Source of the DNA: a virus
Length of the DNA stretch: 64,000 nucleotides
Direction: 5' to 3' (one strand)
Virus record (IMG/VR): IMGVR_UViG_3300037325_000137
Span: 1-64,000 of that record
The position numbers and the translations under genes are program-made. The notes beneath the pieces are model-generated. The model had not been told where the DNA came from. It saw nothing but the letters and a program-made list of their open reading frames with translations, and searched no databases. Below are positions 9,641-62,193 of this stretch, in pieces. Within the stretch, counting starts at the first letter, position 1. Every line of letters starts with the position of its first letter.

Positions 9641-11344
9641 TTATTGTTTACTTATTATTTGCCAGTACGTTCCCGTATTTATAACTGTATAAATATCCCC
9701 AGATCCTAAAGTTAACGAGGTTGCATTGTCTGTCTTTACTTGTCTTATTTGCTGAGAACTAGAAGTTGCTATGGTAATAGTATTAGTAGCGTCGTAAGCT
9801 ATTACAGTATATTTTTTACCTACTGGCACACTTGCTAAAGTTGGCAAAATTACTGATACCGCCTGACTAGCTGCATCTATAATTACCTCACTATTTGATA
9901 ATGTTAAAGTTATGTCTTCTATTATTGTTATTAACGGAGATAAAAATGAGTTTGCTTTAATATTTCCAACCACTTCAATTTTTTCCGTTGCCACTGTAAT
10001 TCCTAACCCAATATTCCCACTTGGGGATATAGTCATGTTATTAGTGCTTGCGTGTGATAAATTAAATCCTATATAAGCGTAACTGTAAACTGTTCCGTTT
10101 CCAAATATTCCAATATTAAAAGGGTCATCTAAAGAATTTGTGTTAACCCCTTGAATAACATTTCTAGCATAACCACCAGACGGAAAAGATATAATTTTTC
10201 TAAACCCATTATTTCCTGATGAATTATTGGCAATATCCAAAATACTTGTAAAAGAAGTGTTTGCAGATACTGTTTGTCCCGCACCTGATTTTTGTACTGA
10301 ATTATCTGCTAAAACACCTTGCGCTTCTGTTGCTACTTCCGAAATAAATGCAACCTCTTTAAATGCGCTACCATCGTGTATATGCATTGCTGCGTTTTCG
10401 TCTAGCATTACCGAGCCTTTAACCGCATTGGTAATAGTAGATAATGCAGCGGTGAAGAACTTTTGCATACCGTTTTTAAATAGCGTGTAGGCGTCTGATC
10501 TTGCTCCTGCGTTAGTTCCTCTCCCATAATTAACAAGTCTGTCCAAAGCGTTAAATGAAAAGGCACTTTGTGGCGTGTAATCAGTGCCAAAGGATCCTGC
10601 TGAATGTTCACTATATGACCTTGCACGATTTCCATATCCCTGTGCGTGTGATTGGTTTCCGCTTGCTATAGTGTCATATCCCTCTGCGTGTGACATATCT
10701 CCACTTGCTAAAGTGTTAAATCCTTCTGCGTGAGACCTTAGACCACTTGCCACTGTTTCTTGTCCTTCGGCATGTGAAATAGAGCCACTTGCCAGCGTAG
10801 TTTGACCTTCTGCGTGAGAGTTTAGACCACTTGCCCTGCTTCCTAATCCTTGTGCGTGTGAATATTCGCCAGTTGCCTTACTTCCTGATCCCTCTGCATG
10901 TGATGCTATACCGCTTGCGGTTGTGTTTACTCCTTCTGCGTGCGAATTATTTCCATTTGCGCCTTTAGTGGTGCTTGCTTGCGTTTGAATACTTAAATCA
11001 ACTGCATTATCACCTATGTCACCATGGTTTGAAGGATTTTCACTTTTTAATCTAAAACCAGTATTACCGCCTTCGGTTACTTCAATAAGCTGTCCTCTAG
11101 ACCCTAACTCATTTTCACTAATAAAAGGATTGACTCCATCTTCTCCATCGTTTGTAAACTCTGACGTTGCTGTTGGTATCGTTACATCTTCTGGTTGCAA
11201 AGCGGTGTCTGCTATTGCACCTTGTGCTGCGGTTGCATAGTCACTACTATTAAATGGACAACATACAGGATATAGGTTTGCTGTAGTTATGTTTAAAATA
11301 CCCTTACCTACGTCTACTAGCCTATATTTTTTTTTCACTTCCAT
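9641..11344 (-). CDS. Tail fibre / receptor-binding protein with YadA-head-like repeats
   Basis: About 8 tandem 14-aa ASG..SHAEG repeats; GNIGLG..TEKIEVVGNIKA fibre motif. Confidence 0.75.
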   Translation of the reverse strand: MEVKKKYRLVDVGKGILNITTANLYPVCCPFNSSDYATAAQGAIADTALQPEDVTIPTATSEFTNDGEDGVNPFISENELGSRGQLIEVTEGGNTGFRLKSENPSNHGDIGDNAVDLSIQTQASTTKGANGNNSHAEGVNTTASGIASHAEGSGSKATGEYSHAQGLGSRASGLNSHAEGQTTLASGSISHAEGQETVASGLRSHAEGFNTLASGDMSHAEGYDTIASGNQSHAQGYGNRARSYSEHSAGSFGTDYTPQSAFSFNALDRLVNYGRGTNAGARSDAYTLFKNGMQKFFTAALSTITNAVKGSVMLDENAAMHIHDGSAFKEVAFISEVATEAQGVLADNSVQKSGAGQTVSANTSFTSILDIANNSSGNNGFRKIISFPSGGYARNVIQGVNTNSLDDPFNIGIFGNGTVYSYAYIGFNLSHASTNNMTISPSGNIGLGITVATEKIEVVGNIKANSFLSPLITIIEDITLTLSNSEVIIDAASQAVSVILPTLASVPVGKKYTVIAYDATNTITIATSSSQQIRQVKTDNATSLTLGSGDIYTVINTGTYWQIISKQ

Positions 11345-32509: not shown

Positions 32510-33109
32510 TTAGAAGTTTCTACCTGTTCTACCGTCTACACCATCACCAACCCTTGTTCCGTTTATTGTAAGTGGGTTTGGGTCTATTTCTGTTCCATTA
32601 GCAATATCTATTGATCTACCTCCTGCTAATAGGCTGTTTGTAAAACCTCCTAAAGCACTTACTGAATCTTGTCTACCTACTTGTCTTTGCTGACCAAGAC
32701 CCATTATAGCACCCAACTCACGTTGTTCTCTAATGCTTTGAATCCTATCTTCTCCTTGCGCTATTGCAAAACTTCTGTTAACGTCTTGTTCCTCTACATT
32801 TTCGAGTATAGTATTACGTGTAAGAATATTACCATCAGAAATAGAAGGGAAAGCTCCAAGTATTCCTCTAGCTCCTAAACGTCTTGTAGCATCTATGGTG
32901 TTAGCATTTGATGACAAACTAGAATCTAATAGCCTATCTGTTCTTTCTGTAGATATTTTTATGTCTCTTTGGTTATTTACAAGCTCTTGTCTTCTTAGAT
33001 TGTTTAAAGCTTCTTCCGCATCTTTCTTTTCTTTTTGAGCTTGAAAAAATTGAATCCCGCTACTTACTAAGCCTACTGCTGCTCCTATTCCTGCAAATGG
33101 TATTGGCAT
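32510..33109 (-). CDS. Putative ejection/pilot protein
   Basis: Gly/Ala-rich hydrophobic N-terminus plus Q/R-rich helix. Confidence 0.6.
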   Translation of the reverse strand: MPIPFAGIGAAVGLVSSGIQFFQAQKEKKDAEEALNNLRRQELVNNQRDIKISTERTDRLLDSSLSSNANTIDATRRLGARGILGAFPSISDGNILTRNTILENVEEQDVNRSFAIAQGEDRIQSIREQRELGAIMGLGQQRQVGRQDSVSALGGFTNSLLAGGRSIDIANGTEIDPNPLTINGTRVGDGVDGRTGRNF

Positions 33110-33174
33110 GATATTAAATTTAATTAATCAAAGATAATCAATTTAACTCTTTTTTTAATCAAACTTTAGTAAAC

Positions 33175-33205
33175 CAAAAAACCTTGCCGAACTAGACAAG
33201 GTTTT
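33175..33205 (-). terminator. Rho-independent terminator
   Basis: AAAACCTTGTC-loop-GGCAAGGTTTTTT. Confidence 0.7.
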
Positions 33206-33250
33206 AGGTTCAAGATCAATTGAAAAGATTAAAACGAGTTCAAATATAGT

Positions 33251-36200
33251 CTAAATTTTAGACTCTATTGCTTCTACGTCTACTGCTCTTATTTCTACAT
33301 ATTCCGAACCGATATAAGTTAGTTCTATATCTAAAACATCACCTCTGATGCTTTGACCTTCAATTGATTGGTTTTTATTGTACTTTAAAAAACTTATTGA
33401 TTCATTTAAAGATGTGTTTGCTATTGTTATTTGATTATTAATAACACTCGTGATTACTGACGCTGCAAAACCTAATGATATACTAGATACTGTGTCTCCT
33501 ACGGATAAAGAGCTAGGAACTCCTTGTGAACAATTTATTAAACCGTTTACTATCTCATATGATCCTAGACCAAAAGAGCTATTAGATAGCGGTTCTGAAT
33601 TAGTATTACCCATTATTGCAGCATAAAAATAATCTTCATACTTTTCAAAATGCTCTTTAGGTATTAAAACAGAAGTTAACCTAGTTTTTATAAAAGCATC
33701 CCACGGCTTGTTACTCTGTATAGCCATAGAATTGCATATTTTAACGGTGGATGGTTCGGTGTTTTCAAAGAAATTAATCTTGCTCATAGACTGTACTCCA
33801 AAGAACTCATTATAATTCTCTGTAGCATTCATACGGTACATAACACCATTTTTCCATGCGTAGAACTCATTATTTGCGTTTAGCATAAAATCTGGCTCAA
33901 ACATGAAGTAGTTCGGAAAACCATTTCTAGTTAATTTATATGCCAAGCAAGATTGTTTGTTAGGTATATGTACCACATATTCTTTATGCTTAAAATCATA
34001 TCCAGCAACTAATTTCGTAGACTTATTGTTCGCCATAGCGTTAGAGATTTCATACTCTAAACCATATTGATTTATAGTAGTGACTCCATCGTTAGCGAGT
34101 TGTATAATGTTTCCTCTTTGCTGATCTGTAAAATATTTTCTTCCTTCTATTTTTACATAGCTTTCTGGGTGTAAAGATATTCCGTGTTCCCCACCAGCGT
34201 AAGGTCGCCAACTTCTTTCATCCAAAACATTATTTACAACACCAATAGTTTGATTTCCACTAGCATCATATATGACTTGTTTATTGTAAGGCATAGTACC
34301 AATAGCACTTTCTTGCAATATCAATAGGTTTCCGTTATCGTTATCTATTAGCTGAATACTTCCGTTTTCTTTATCTAATAAAACATAGTTAGGTGCTGAT
34401 AAATTAAACCAATTTAATCCGTTAAAATCTGAATCATCATTGTAAATATCAGACCATTGAACATCTGCGACTCTTGTTATTTCTCTATATCTATCTTTAG
34501 TATTAGATAAAACCCTTATACCAACATCTAAACCTTTTTTGTTAAATTCATCTTTAATCTTGTAGCTTTCTACTCCATTACCATAAGACCAAGCGTTAAA
34601 CCAATCTAGGGTTATAACCAAGGGCTGTGAAGGTAATGATTGTGAAATATCAGTTGAGATATTTTCTATGTCGGTTTCGTAATCGTCAGTTATTTTGCTA
34701 TGTAAATTATCTATAACCCTATATGTTTTTCCAATTTCAAAAAATATTTCTGGTGATTGATCTTTAGGCTCTGTTTCAAATATAGGAATGTTTCTGATTT
34801 GTCTGATTTCAGAAAACACATCAGAATATATGTTTCTTGTGTTTTCTTTTCTTCTATCAGAAGCTATTATTAATGAGTGAGAAATACCTTGTGGATTAAC
34901 GTCAATAAACAACTTATCTCTGTTAGCAGAATTTCCTGTTGAGTATCTTAAATCAACTTCTCTAAACCAAAAGTTTTGTTCTGACCAGTCAAAATTAGGT
35001 TGGCTTTGGATAAGAGAAAATATTTCATCACCATAAAACCATTCTTCAATATTATCATATTTTTGATTTGATTTTACCTCTATTAAAAAACTTCTGCTTG
35101 TATTACTTCTTTCTTTTGCTGAAAAATACTTTAACTTTATAGTACTTCCTGCATTTATAAAATTAGGAACGCTAAATATTGCGTGTGATCTATTGTCTTG
35201 ATCTAATAAAAAAGCTATACTTTTTTTTAGAAGCCACTTGTCGTTTAAAGAGTTTCCTGTTGTTGCAGCAAACCTTACTGAAACGTCTGAATCTAGAACA
35301 ACGTCCGAAGTATCTGTGTCTAATTCTGTCCAAACACTTGGAGGTGTTACTCCGTTTGTCTGTTGTGTTCTAAACCTAAATACGTTAGGGGTTGTAGATA
35401 CATCATGAATTTCTATTTCATACCTTAAATCTTCTGTTCCATTAAAAGTCACAGTTGGGGTTAGCGTGTCTACACCAGAATTTTTAAATTTTATTTTATA
35501 GAATGATTGGTTGTTTTGTGTTACAGGGCCTAGTCCACCACCACTTGCATCGTAATGGTCATATTTTGTAAAACTATAGTTACTTTCGTCGAAAGTTACA
35601 TCTGAATCTATTAATGATATTTTCATATACCAACCACTAGGTTGACCACCATCTTGATCGTTCAAAAAATCTTTATCTTTTCTTTCAAACTCTAATACTT
35701 TTATTTTTTCCAAAGTATTTAAAATACCTTCTCCATCTGCCTTTACTATAACGAAATCTCCCTCTTTAAATTTATCAATATCTGACTGCTCAACTTTAAT
35801 ATACCTATATACACCTTCTTGATAAAATAATGTAGGCAAGAATTGATCATACCCTTTTTTATTCTGAGTAACAAAAAATCTATAATACTTAGCCCAAAAA
35901 GGTGGTTTGTGTCTTAACTCTACTTTTATTTTATTTTCAGTATCACTAGCACTAGCAGGAATCATAATTGTATTAGTCTTACTTACTAACACTGTTGTTG
36001 ACCTTCCATGCTCGTCAGAATACACTAATCCAATCTCTACATCTCTATTTGATCTAACTGTTTTTTTAGGTTCAAGGCTAGGTTTTTGTACGGTAGTTTG
36101 ATTTCCAGTAGGATCTCCATCTGCGTCTAATTCATCTTCTTGAACGTCTATGGTATTCTCTAAAGACTCTAATATTAGATTGTAATCTATGTTTATATTA

Positions 36201-43014: not shown

Positions 43015-43479
43015 ATGAAAAAAATAGTTCCTTTTAATAAAAATCGTATTGTAGAAGTTGACTTTTCTGTAAATAAGAATATTGAACTAATAAAGGCTAA
43101 AGAGTTAATGACTAGTTTTTCTAGCAATGATTTTAGTTTTACAATATTTGTTCTAGAAGACTTAAGTAGCAAGTATTCATTGTCTTATGAAGACATACTT
43201 GTAATTTTGTATTTGTATGAAATTGTAGTTTTTGGTAGGAAAATTGATTTTAATGGTGGTTGGTATTTGTTAGGAAACCTAATAGATAAAGGTTTTGCTG
43301 ACAAGGATTATTCTATTAAACAAAAAGACCTATACCGATTGTCAGAAAGGGGTATAGGTCTGGTAAATGATTATTCAAAAGGTTTTGGCAATAAAGATAA
43401 ATGGATTAATGAGAATCGTAAAATACCTATTTCAGATCAAAGCATAGTTACAAGTGTAATATCTGATTACTTTAAGTAG
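43015..43479 (+). CDS. Winged-helix-like regulator
   Basis: L..LIDKG.....LYRLSERG pattern; divergent from the head operon. Confidence 0.55.
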   Translation: MKKIVPFNKNRIVEVDFSVNKNIELIKAKELMTSFSSNDFSFTIFVLEDLSSKYSLSYEDILVILYLYEIVVFGRKIDFNGGWYLLGNLIDKGFADKDYSIKQKDLYRLSERGIGLVNDYSKGFGNKDKWINENRKIPISDQSIVTSVISDYFK

Positions 43480-43501
43480 TTCTTATTGCCTATATACAGC
43501 C

Positions 43502-43798
43502 GTTAGCACACATTAAAACTATCTAATATATATTTCGCTAATTTTAAGGCTTGCTCTTTATTTAAGTAAGTATGTGCATCTCCTTGAAAATCTCCCTCTA
43601 TCTCAATCTCAAAGTCATTATCCTTGTCTACTGGGTTTATCACAAAATTATCAAGTGATAAACGTGTGCTAACACTTGGTATAGTGCATTGCTCGGTTTC
43701 GGTTTTTTTACTATCTGTATTCATAATTCAAAGTTTTTGTGTAATTAATTAAGTTCGTGCTATAAGGTCGCAACGACACCATACCATATCCGTTATTA
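43502..43798 (+). mobile_element. Solitary integron-like cassette outside the array
   Basis: GTTAGCACACATT(43502)...AACGTGTGCTAAC(43673), then arms GGTATAGTGCATTGC / GCAACGACACCATACC and GTT at 43792. Confidence 0.75.
43503..43724 (-). CDS. Cassette-encoded hypothetical protein
   Basis: Starts in the attC-like loop; stop TAA lies within the GTTA core. Confidence 0.7.
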   Translation of the reverse strand: MNTDSKKTETEQCTIPSVSTRLSLDNFVINPVDKDNDFEIEIEGDFQGDAHTYLNKEQALKLAKYILDSFNVC

Positions 43799-44011
43799 AG
43801 TAAACTCCCACTCGTCGGGAATATGTACTTCAAAACATTCTTCGTTAGTGTCATTGATTTTGGTTTTTAAAAACGAATCTCCAATGTTTTCATCATCAGT
43901 ATATGTTGCTATCCCGAGATATTTACCATCACGCCAAAGGTGGTAATCTTTACCTTATATCAAAAGTTCTTGCCTTAATCCTAATACACCTAGTTTTAAT
44001 ATACGTTTCAT
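43796..44011 (-). pseudogene. Hypothetical gene with internal TAA
   Basis: MKRILKLGVLGLRQELLI* continues in frame as GKDYHLWRDG...DEWEFT*; stop at 43955-43957. Confidence 0.5.
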
Positions 44012-44022
44012 TATTTTGTCTT

Positions 44023-44334
44023 TTAAATATTAAACAGTTTGTTGAGGTCTTCTGTTGTGATTGAATCTTTTTGTCCAGAAGCTTCAATTATGTCTTTAAA
44101 CCCTTCTAGGTCTTCTTGCTTAATTGCAAATCTAGTAAGGCTGAAATATTCATACTGCAAGCATAGACTTATTAAGTTTATTTCCTCTATTTGCACTCCT
44201 AATGTGTTTCCTTGCATTGTTAGTCTAGCAACATCTTTTAAAGTATATAGCTTATCTTCTTCTACCCAATGTGTAAAAGGAATGTCCTCTGGCTTATTTG
44301 TATCGTCAATACAAAGTAGTTTTATTTGGCTCAT
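44023..44334 (-). CDS. Hypothetical phage protein
   Basis: ORF in operon. Confidence 0.65.
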   Translation of the reverse strand: MSQIKLLCIDDTNKPEDIPFTHWVEEDKLYTLKDVARLTMQGNTLGVQIEEINLISLCLQYEYFSLTRFAIKQEDLEGFKDIIEASGQKDSITTEDLNKLFNI

Positions 44335-56712: not shown

Positions 56713-56941
56713 AAAAATCGATTATTGAATTGTGAGCCTTTAATATTTTAATTAGATTCATATAAGTGCTATTATCTTGTGTTTCTTTTATAAATATTTC
56801 TAAGAACTCTTTGTGAGTAATAGGCTTGTAATTTATAAAGAAATCATATTTAAGACTAGGATTAGATGTGATTATATTTCCTATTTCTTGAATATTGTAG
56901 GATTTAAACCTGTGACCTAAATTATTTCTAATTTTATACAT
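56693..56941 (-). CDS. Hypothetical protein translationally coupled to the integrase
   Basis: ATG overlaps the integrase stop codon. Confidence 0.6.
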   Translation of the reverse strand: MYKIRNNLGHRFKSYNIQEIGNIITSNPSLKYDFFINYKPITHKEFLEIFIKETQDNSTYMNLIKILKAHNSIIDFYEKQDK

Positions 56942-57750
56942 TAAATAGGCATTTGAATTTTGCTTAAATGATTTTTTGAAACGTGGGTGTAAATTTCAGT
57001 TGTCTTAGAGCTTTGATGCCCCGCAATAGATTGGATTATCCTTAAATCAGTACCTCCCTCTAGTAAGTGAGTGAAGCAACTATGCCTAAGCTGATGCATA
57101 TAAGCATCTTCTTTAATATACTTTTTAATTATTTTATTACAAGATGTGGCTGAATACTGTAAAGAAGACTGACCGTTAAAAAGATATTCTTTTGGTCTAT
57201 GTTTTTTAAAGTAATCCCTAAGTGTTTTTAGTAGCCCATTAGACAAAGGAACAACTCTATCTTTCTTGCCTTTAGCTTGAATTATATGAATCAATCCTCT
57301 ATTTGAATCAATGTTTTCTATTTTCAGATTTATTATTTCTGAAACCCTTAATCCGCAACTATATGCTGCGGATAAAATAGCTTTATGTTTCATGTTTTTT
57401 ATAGATAATATTTTTTCTGTAAGAATTTTTTTATCTATTATTTGGGGTAGCTTTTTTTCTTTTCTAGGTCTTGAAAAATCTACTTTATCGTATTTTTTAT
57501 TCAGAACTTTTTTGTAAAGAAACTTGATTGAGCTTATTATTTGATTTTGTTGCGATATAGAGCTGAAATTATAATTTTCTAAATAAGATTTAAAATCATT
57601 ACTATCTAGCTTAGAAGGAGACTTTTTATTGACTCTTAAAAATTCTTCAACGTAATAACTATATATTTTTACAGTATTTTTACTGTAGTTAAAATAGTTC
57701 AATTTTGAAATGAAATTCTGCAGAAAAGTGTGTTTAGTTTTGCTTAACAT
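56941..57750 (-). CDS. Tyrosine recombinase, integron-integrase-like but lacking the IntI insertion
   Basis: SAM-like N-terminus (YSKNTVKIY); catalytic R (GLRVSE), K (KGKKDR), HQLRH, GH, Y (TTEIYTHV); 269 aa. Confidence 0.9.
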   Translation of the reverse strand: MLSKTKHTFLQNFISKLNYFNYSKNTVKIYSYYVEEFLRVNKKSPSKLDSNDFKSYLENYNFSSISQQNQIISSIKFLYKKVLNKKYDKVDFSRPRKEKKLPQIIDKKILTEKILSIKNMKHKAILSAAYSCGLRVSEIINLKIENIDSNRGLIHIIQAKGKKDRVVPLSNGLLKTLRDYFKKHRPKEYLFNGQSSLQYSATSCNKIIKKYIKEDAYMHQLRHSCFTHLLEGGTDLRIIQSIAGHQSSKTTEIYTHVSKNHLSKIQMPI

Positions 57751-57799
57751 ATTGATTTATATTGATTTGTTAGTTATGGTTGATATATAGTAGTTAGCA
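57751..57799 (+). other. attI-like site
   Basis: ATTGATTT direct repeats (57751, 57761) and GATATATAGTA-G|TT at 57793 where the first cassette begins; no hairpin. Confidence 0.6.
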
Positions 57800-58084
57800 A
57801 ACATTATTCAAATAATCACAGTACATTTTTGCCTGTTCTTCGCTATGTATAAAGAACACTACCTCTATACCTTTGCCATCGAGTACCGCTTTACCTTGTT
57901 TTCTGCCAACTCTAAAAGGTGGTGTATATTTATTAGCATCATAACGTTTGCTAACACCAGATAAAATTAATGCCTCGTCTACTGCATTTTTAATAAGTCC
58001 TATACATTCTTCTTTTGCTAATGAAGTTCCTACCCAACTTTTTAAATTTTGTGCATGTTTATCAATTATTTGCTCTTTAGTCAT
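57794..58084 (-). CDS. Cassette 1 hypothetical protein
   Basis: Starts in the attC1 loop; stop lies in the GTTA core. Confidence 0.7.
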   Translation of the reverse strand: MTKEQIIDKHAQNLKSWVGTSLAKEECIGLIKNAVDEALILSGVSKRYDANKYTPPFRVGRKQGKAVLDGKGIEVVFFIHSEEQAKMYCDYLNNVC

Positions 58085-58147
58085 TGTCTATTTATTTAAT
58101 TATTGTTATTATTTATCGGCACTAATCTTATCTGCGGTACGTTAGCT
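57949..58147 (+). repeat. attC-like site 1
   Basis: TGCTAAC-ACC-AGATAAAATTAATGCC ... GGCACTAATCTTATCT-GCGGTAC-GTTAGCT. Confidence 0.8.
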
Positions 58148-58975: not shown

Positions 58976-59032
58976 AGGTAACACTGTATAAAAGCCATTG
59001 AAAATAACGGCTCTTATACCCATCCGTTAGCA
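58976..59032 (+). repeat. attC-like site 2 (57 bp)
   Basis: AGGTAAC-ACT-GTATAAAAGCC ... GGCTCTTATAC-CCATCC-GTTAGCA. Confidence 0.8.
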
Positions 59033-59036
59033 ACAA

Positions 59037-59279
59037 TTAATTGCCCTGTAAGTAATTGTCTGCAATCCATTCTTTACTTACAAACCTATTTCCTCCACCT
59101 TTTTCAAGGCTTGTTAAAAGGTCAATTAACAGTTCCCTTCGGTTGCTAACATCGTTTAACCGTAATTGCTCGGTTACGTACTTATCTATGAAGTCTGTTA
59201 ACCATTCTACCTTTTCATTTCCAGTCATATCGTTTCTTGATACAAGTTGGTTTAATTTTTCAATCTCTGTTATTTTCAT
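59037..59279 (-). CDS. Cassette 3 hypothetical protein
   Basis: Starts in the attC3 loop; arm read as QLRLNDVSNR. Confidence 0.7.
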   Translation of the reverse strand: MKITEIEKLNQLVSRNDMTGNEKVEWLTDFIDKYVTEQLRLNDVSNRRELLIDLLTSLEKGGGNRFVSKEWIADNYLQGN

Positions 59280-59343
59280 CTGTTCTTATTTATTAAGTTT
59301 TGTTATTAATTCACGCAACTACGGTTACACGTAGCCGTTGTAG
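59144..59343 (+). repeat. attC-like site 3
   Basis: TGCTAAC-AT-CGTTTAACCGTAATTGC ... GCAACTACGGTTACACG-TAGCC-GTT. Confidence 0.8.
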
Positions 59344-61944: not shown

Positions 61945-62193
61945 CTATTTAAAGTTTTGCCTAAACGGCTTGTTACATTTTGGACAAGAAGTGCCTAAAT
62001 ACAAGCCTTTGATTATCGGTTCGCAACACTGTTCGCTCTGCCTTACAACAACGGGTATAGAAAATAATTCAGAAGGCATCAGTCTTTCTATCACGTCTAT
62101 TGCACTCCATATTTCTCTTGATTCATAACTGTGATGTATTGAGTCAAAGTGTTCTGCTCTTTTTTCTAGTGTTTTAATAACGTCTGCTTTCAT
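61945..62193 (-). CDS. Cassette 11 protein with C-terminal Zn-ribbon
   Basis: Starts in the attC11 loop; arm read as LFSIPVVVRQ; CC...CPKC. Confidence 0.7.
   Translation of the reverse strand: MKADVIKTLEKRAEHFDSIHHSYESREIWSAIDVIERLMPSELFSIPVVVRQSEQCCEPIIKGLYLGTSCPKCNKPFRQNFK

Follow-up and report, generated by a model that had tools for sequence, protein, structure and literature searches.

A solitary, hairpin-led gene cassette 14 kb from the recombinase-linked array of an integron-like system in a phage genome

In bacteria, the insertion of gene cassettes outside their array has been demonstrated in the laboratory for IntI integrons. Isolated cassettes of this kind (SALINs) have been proposed to arise by insertion at attG sites, which share only a loose GWT consensus, and not by the decay of arrays (Loot et al., bioRxiv 10.1101/2022.09.11.507474). 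Integrase-less CALINs, found with attC models, have been described in phages including Polaribacter phage P12002L; in virulent flavobacterial phages their sites flank small genes and DNA methylases, and some of the sites were recombined by IntI1 in assays (Qi et al. 2023, PMC9892861).

The window analysed here, i.e. the whole stretch of 64,000 nt, corresponds to the first 64 kb of IMG/VR record IMGVR_UViG_3300037325_000137, a complete virus genome (G000; 78,375 bp, 127-bp terminal repeats) that was assembled from a salt-lake metagenome. Nearly all genes in the window lie on the minus strand. The closest isolate is Tenacibaculum phage Gundel_1, whose capsid protein is 48% identical and whose structural and replication genes are collinear with those of the window phage. 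Positions 43503-43792 constitute one complete cassette of the integron-like system of this phage. An earlier note on this DNA had described a complete unit with a hairpin and a GTT at 43792, and every element it listed was found where it had been placed. We consider it probable (roughly 0.65) that this solitary 290-nt unit was inserted off the array, in the manner of a SALIN, by a Xer-type system of reverse polarity.

The locus resembles a SALIN in that it comprises a single cassette off the array, with its own folded site and G|TT-type cores, potentially excisable and expressible. It differs from SALINs in that its replicon is a phage that bears an array and a recombinase at a distance of 14 kb, the enzyme belongs to the short Xer-type recombinases and not to IntI, the target resembles an att half-site (attG sites have the loose consensus only), and the cassette gene faces away from the hairpin. 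With phage CALINs it shares the presence of attC-like sites around small genes in flavobacterial phages, but in the present system the array has a short recombinase of its own linked to it, and the object of interest is a lone off-array cassette. The case differs from both SALINs and CALINs in the enzyme family, the reversed gene polarity, the start codon encoded by the hairpin, and in a phage that carries the complete system. Phage morons, small accessory genes defined by their promoter/terminator context, have to our knowledge no described insertion machinery. The solitary unit is moron-like as a small accessory gene that lies between two gene ends, neither of them broken, and possibly possesses start signals of its own; it differs from morons in having defined recombination cores and a linked recombinase family.

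The features of the locus and of the array region are as follows:

43015-43479, plus strand: backbone gene of 154 aa (open reading frame, with a 35%-identical syntenic homologue in Gundel_1)
43480-43502, plus strand: attI-like half-site forming the left flank (...GCCTATATACAGCC-G|TT), which lacks a partner arm, recognised from the sequence
43502-43514, plus strand: outer core and start box GTTAGCACACATT, with the left core GTT at 43502-43504
43503-43792, plus strand: solitary cassette of 290 nt (TT...G), taken as the mobile unit, its edges matching the unit defined by insertions and deletions among Freya isolates and by a cassette shared with Freya_10
43503-43724, minus strand: cassette ORF of 73 aa (from the ORF list), residues 18-73 of which form a conserved body ending in NVC and the stop codon
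43661-43673, plus strand: inner box (R''-like) AACGTGTGCTAAC, complementary to the cassette start at 12 of 13 positions
43674-43791, minus strand: attC-like hairpin, with arms 43678-43692 and 43770-43785 and a loop of ~77 nt
43792-43794, plus strand: right core G|TT, the putative crossover, complement of the AAC that follows the double stop of the neighbouring gene (TAATAA-C)
43796-44011, minus strand: small neighbour gene with an in-frame TAA at codon 19 (43955-43957), from alignment with nine intact homologues
56941-57750, minus strand: short Xer-type tyrosine recombinase of 269 aa (Pfam PF00589 and PF13495)
57751-57795, plus strand: attI-like site of the main array (...GATATATAGTA-G|TT), recognised from the sequence, 14.0 kb from the solitary cassette

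The solitary unit is composed of a G|TT-box, an ORF on the opposite strand, a complementary box with its AAC, a hairpin and a second G|TT, as are the cassettes defined by the Freya isolates (see below). The triplet TTA at 43503-43505, which begins within the left core, is the complement of the stop codon of the cassette ORF. The sole mismatch between the two boxes is an A.C pair on the plus strand, equivalent to G.T on the minus strand, and it occupies the identical position in five array cassettes. Folding of the minus strand, but not of the plus strand, yields the stem of the hairpin (16 bp with one bulge). Read on this coding strand, the site has the layout AAC-N5-stem...stem-N3-GTT, with the same 2-nt offset and the same kind of G.T wobbles (A.C on the other strand) as in the array sites. 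The right core at 43792 ranks 21st among the 3256 GTT sites scored with a matrix derived from the right arms of the array. The hairpin encodes residues 1-17 of the ORF (MNTDSKKTETEQCTIPS), and its loop contains the motif ACTTTGAATT and the ATG at 43722-43724. As the loop holds the start codon and the first 17 codons, the acidic 73-aa protein could be made wherever the cassette lands. A Pfam search with this protein identified no family, it was not found in GTDB representative genomes, and its ORF reveals no similarity to those of two array cassettes with a nearly equal start box. The AlphaFold model (pLDDT 54, low confidence) was too poor for a fold search; it tentatively suggests a disordered leader followed by three strands and a helix.

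Statistics of folding or repeats did not single out the hairpin. Its folding energy was no better than that of shuffled sequences (z from 0 to 1.1), the same was true of the left flank, and folding energy was abandoned as a criterion. A genome-wide count of 13-nt GTT..AAC inverted repeats gave 9 against 3.8 expected, and neither this count nor the folding energy is significant alone. A generic scan for AAC...stem...GTT had a background of ~20 matches per strand and was unable to single out sites, while a scan against Rfam, which has no attC model, returned nothing relevant. The solitary cassette is judged to be real because of homology, not because of energy or repeat statistics. A 137-nt hairpin module is 85.7% identical to a cassette-junction hairpin in nine genomes of Polaribacter phage Freya, and the stem is retained in three phages (the window phage, Freya and Gundel_1), where two of its pairs are compensatory and its G.T wobbles are fixed. 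The module is also present in multiple copies in other salt-lake metagenomes: in three such runs its depth is 44-156, compared with 0-5 on the flanks, its loose ends lie at the two cores (43667-43671 and 43794-43796), and the well-supported variants listed for it are all in the loop.

The 269-aa recombinase is the only PF00589 match in the whole genome. Its scores against the NCBIfam models of XerA and of the integron integrase are under the respective cut-offs (TIGR02249: 157.7 bits against a cut-off of 265, split over two stretches). The search of PDB reported the archaeal XerA (4a8e) as the top match, and aligned Vibrio IntI4 over residues 20-180 only, which implies that the IntI-specific insertion is absent. 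Classical IntI enzymes, in contrast, possess an extra domain. The main array extends from 57793 to ~64150 and consists of small genes on the minus strand, between which lie hairpin sites that have GTT cores. In several of its cassettes (59027-59337, 57794-58141) the inner box lies 130-190 nt within the annotated ORF, hence the hairpin loop includes the start of the ORF and tens of codons (e.g. stem 59339/59150). A short recombinase is linked to a cassette array in three phage lineages.

The system resembles a classical integron (class 1 and Vibrio chromosomal integrons) in that a recombinase gene stands beside an attI-like site and an array, the point of entry of new cassettes adjoins the recombinase gene (as seen in the Freya isolates), the hairpins are imperfect, with inverted repeats in the order R''-L''...L'-R', the cores are GTT/AAC, and the cassette start is complementary to its own R''. 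However, in a classical cassette the ORF has no promoter, is directed away from attI and is followed on its 3' side by attC, whereas here the hairpin is located 5' of the ORF and holds its ATG; the cassette ORFs lie on the same strand as the recombinase gene and read toward attI; and the difference between the strands is due to G.T wobbles and a 2-nt offset of the spacers, with no clear contribution from extrahelical bases.

The array alone is unable to tell whether the 5' or the 3' hairpin travels with a gene, since the hairpins are nearly palindromic. The mobile unit was defined by the Freya genomes, in which the backbone, the cassette array, a short spacer and the integrase follow one another on one strand throughout. 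Freya_2, 5, 6, 8, 9 and 10, which come from the same study and the same host, are identical except for the cassettes beside the integrase: Freya_9 lacks one integrase-adjacent cassette, Freya_8 an internal block, Freya_5 and Freya_2 larger blocks, and Freya_6 carries two different cassettes at the same point. In five junction comparisons every junction falls directly after ...AAC on the coding strand (G|TT on the opposite strand) and is located between two cassettes or at the attI-like site ahead of the integrase gene, which is the counterpart of the main-array attI-like site of the window. The piece gained or lost consists of a hairpin, an ORF and a box with its AAC, and the variable cassettes are those closest to the integrase. 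Read on the complementary strand, the arrangement is an attI-like ...GTTATAGGGGTG|TT followed by cassettes that end in ...hairpin-G|TT. The Freya isolates represent a natural record of cassette gain and loss, which the original paper does not describe as such, and they provide a natural test set that pins down both the mobile unit and the crossover point. Independently, the window cassette 59027-59337 is homologous to the Freya10_10 cassette exactly between the outer-core boundaries, while the flanks are unrelated.

We also considered that the polarity might be classical, the hairpin following the ORF on its 3' side and strands crossing over at the inner GTT. The initial grounds for this were leader swaps at the inner GTT (see below) and the likeness of two other loci, L011 and L012, downstream of the gene. 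This model was rejected as the main mode because the Freya junctions and the cassette shared between Freya and the window place the crossover at the outer core; what L011 and L012 have in common downstream is for the most part that their hairpins belong to one family. In layout the system is comparable to an integron, with genes that face the attachment site and hairpins upstream of the genes.

In array positions there are also mini-cassettes without an ORF, GTTGTAAACTGGTTGCCC...GGGCAACTTGTTTACAAC and GTTACCATTTCG...GGTAAC (at the end of the Freya_10 record and at positions 80-130 of L012), which are bare inverted repeats.

The body of the solitary ORF (residues 18-73) has 18 metagenome homologues with 82-96% identity. 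In L012 the same body forms the second cassette from the attI-like site, beside a 265-aa recombinase that is 58% identical to that of the window; in L007 and L011 it is located among other cassettes; and the hairpin type of the solitary cassette is also present in the Freya array. Gene or hairpin of the solitary unit thereby occur as cassettes in arrays linked to short recombinases, and the presence of this cassette inside other arrays, which the earlier note had proposed to look for, is borne out by L012. Among the body homologues there are at least three unrelated N-terminal leaders encoded by hairpins, and the breakpoint corresponds to the V-S codons (GTT AGC) of the inner core. At the DNA level, homology among four contexts begins exactly at the inner GTT (in the window, homology to the gene copies elsewhere starts at the inner box 43661-43673) and stops at the outer AAC. 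The combination of the type A leader with the body, as in the window, recurs in at least seven protein clusters. The occurrence of one body with different hairpins indicates that exchange takes place at the inner core too and that hairpin and gene are not indivisible; the hairpin and the body found here need not have come together, to judge from these alignments. It follows that this cassette alone, without the Freya data, could not have fixed the polarity. The earlier suggestion that the solitary unit by itself defines cassette boundaries and polarity therefore holds for their values, as the boundaries and the hairpin position (at the right end of the plus strand, upstream of the minus-strand ORF) agree with the Freya isolates and the Freya_10 cassette, and not for their independence.

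The L011 copy has a truncated hairpin, and its body continues in frame from an upstream, unrelated ORF of higher G+C (P0004, 111 aa).

The same data bear on the view that the ORF is a resident small gene and its upstream hairpin merely a regulatory element (a promoter or terminator module) in DNA that does not move. The TTTG-containing loop motif ACTTTGAATT just before the ATG and the position of the unit at the end of an operon would fit such a role, but the motif is not enriched in the window, both the gene and the hairpin are found in numerous unrelated contexts, where their edges are sharp and lie at the cores, and units of like build are gained and lost among the Freya isolates. A scan for sigma-70 promoters and terminators yielded nothing above chance. 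We regard this explanation as very improbable.

The solitary cassette lies between the 3' ends of the plus-strand gene 43015-43479, whose stop codon is 22 nt ahead of the left G|TT, and of the minus-strand gene 43796-44011; as two 3' ends face each other, the junction is convergent. It is a lone cassette that has a single att hairpin and lies 13-14 kb from the nearest array and recombinase, and no attC-like hairpin was found in the 130 nt to its left. Both the convergent position and the absence of a left hairpin had been pointed out in the earlier note. In the neighbouring gene, the premature stop replaces a Tyr that is invariant in the nine intact homologues (61-76 aa), which identifies this copy as a pseudogene. 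Members of its family are spread over very different phages, including contigs of 200-350 kb.

The left flank contains TATAC 4 nt before the left GTT, a feature found at 1.75% of the GTT sites of the genome (~1.1% outside att arms). An ungapped matrix derived from the right arms of the array placed it at rank 145 of 3256, while the array's own attI-like site ranks 2874th on the same matrix. The proposed likeness of the left flank to an attI site is thus retained in a weakened form: TATAC-N4-GTT occurs in many att right arms, but the resemblance is weak, with a chance of ~1-2% for a feature that was picked post hoc.

This flank could alternatively belong to a second landing pad that has been used repeatedly, i.e. 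a mini-array with its own attI-like half-site, in which case the present cassette would be a survivor of turnover and the broken neighbour perhaps a decayed former cassette. Apart from the resemblance of the flank to an att half-site, inspection by eye indicates that the main array of the window phage, its 75 kb cluster (see below) and the arrays of Freya, L012 and Gundel_1 all end in a TAT-containing half-site before G|TT; the family of the adjacent pseudogene is found with cassette-like boxes in the locus L026; and one related contig (run X2) diverges, its match ending immediately left of 44023. Against this, the broken gene has neither an upstream hairpin nor a complementary box, the next gene is only 11 nt away from it, and members of its family in most other contigs are ordinary genes of operons. 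Repeated use of the site is in our opinion unlikely, less so than the other two alternatives considered here. The break in the X2 contig, together with the pseudogene, does suggest that the neighbouring gene may vary as well and that the junction may be a variable spot with a history longer than one insertion.

A single off-array integration predicts an empty-site junction of the form ...TATATACAGCCG|TTATTAAGT... in relatives. Gundel_1 is the sole isolate relative and is too distant for this comparison. That it has no homologue of the stretch 43.5-46.5 kb, and only a terminator-like hairpin at its equivalent convergent junction, nevertheless agrees with an insertion. Searches of viral contigs with the 154-aa flanking gene and the capsid protein as queries revealed no close relative, and a search of metagenome contigs with the 154-aa flanking gene returned nothing. 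The exact 17-mer of the predicted empty site had four matches in IMG/VR, all of them chance occurrences in unrelated genes. In all, IMG/VR, JGI metagenomes and isolate phages contained nothing close. Contigs from related salt-lake runs revealed no joint that skips the cassette, but those of related phages (runs X2 and X3) are short and none bridges 43358-44023, so this does not count against an empty site. As no relative with an empty site was found, we infer integration at this exact site, and of the earlier claim of an off-array integration it is the complete cassette outside the array that is observed and the event that is deduced. The solitary site accordingly constitutes a weaker proof than a before-and-after pair would give.

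Another route by which the segment could have arrived is general or illegitimate recombination, with a block copied from the array of another phage and the G|TT edges reflecting the structure of the donor. Such mosaicism would agree with the lack of a Gundel_1 homologue over the whole 43.5-46.5 kb stretch, with hairpins of ~86% identity that are common to phages of different hosts and might serve as patches of homology, and with the fusion of a truncated hairpin to an unrelated upstream ORF in L011, which is no clean site-specific product. Nonetheless, the unit begins and ends precisely at GTT cores, no second hairpin, neighbouring cassette or other remains of a donor array were left on either side, and no gene was disrupted. 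The base composition gave no foreign signal. We consider this route improbable, and prefer site-specific insertion of a single cassette.

In the scheme that we favour, insertion at this site, the catalysing enzyme and expression of the protein are what we infer. A site-specific recombination at G|TT, within the short spacer that separates the converging gene ends, would have brought in the 290-nt unit. The incoming cassette would comprise, in the order of the plus strand, the start box, the small gene on the opposite strand, the complementary box with its terminal AAC, and the hairpin with its terminal G. In its circular or single-stranded form it may fold the coding-strand hairpin, through the G.T wobbles, and the short Xer-type recombinase (56941-57750), the presumed catalyst, would then swap strands at AA|C (G|TT on the opposite strand) with the half-site in the spacer. 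The predicted left junction reads ...CAGCC-G|TTAGC..., the right junction ...ATATCC-G|TTATTAAG. Translation of the acidic 73-aa protein would start at the ATG in the loop and proceed through the hairpin arm into the body, and read-through from the upstream minus-strand operon could also express the cassette gene.

The locus suggests that off-array insertion operates in nature inside a phage genome, with a much shorter family of recombinases and with reversed-polarity cassettes that bring their own translation start. If this is true, many scattered small accessory genes of phages could owe their placement to defined recombination and not to random mosaicism.

That cassettes of this system can occur outside the array, as the earlier note supposed, is confirmed by two further loci. 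Past the end of the window, at 74200-75200 (74.2-75.2 kb of the same genome), a further group of about four cassettes lies off the array, oriented the opposite way and with genes on the plus strand. It ends in the half-site TTTATCCGATG|TT on the complementary strand, and two of its hairpins belong to hairpin types of the main array. Gundel_1 (L022, MT732474), which has no gene for a tyrosine recombinase (PF00589), possesses two hairpin cassettes at 32950-33620, after the terminator of the sheath gene; one of their hairpins is a diverged copy of the hairpin of the solitary cassette, and one of their ORFs is 57% identical to the array ORF 61945-62193 of the window.

We speculate, with somewhat less than even confidence, that the 43.5 kb junction is a live secondary landing site from which the cassette may still be excised, and that in flavobacterial phages the short Xer-type recombinases distribute hairpin-led cassettes, each able to express itself, over several modules (three loci here, plus the relative that lacks a recombinase), while exchange at the inner core re-pairs bodies with N-termini encoded by hairpins. 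Such a phage-wide system would serve to place accessory genes and to provide them with new heads, beyond a single storage array.

Elsewhere in the window, a 42-nt unit is repeated six times head-to-tail at 10617-10952, within the minus-strand ORF 9641-11344 (567 aa), which probably encodes a repetitive structural or fibre protein.
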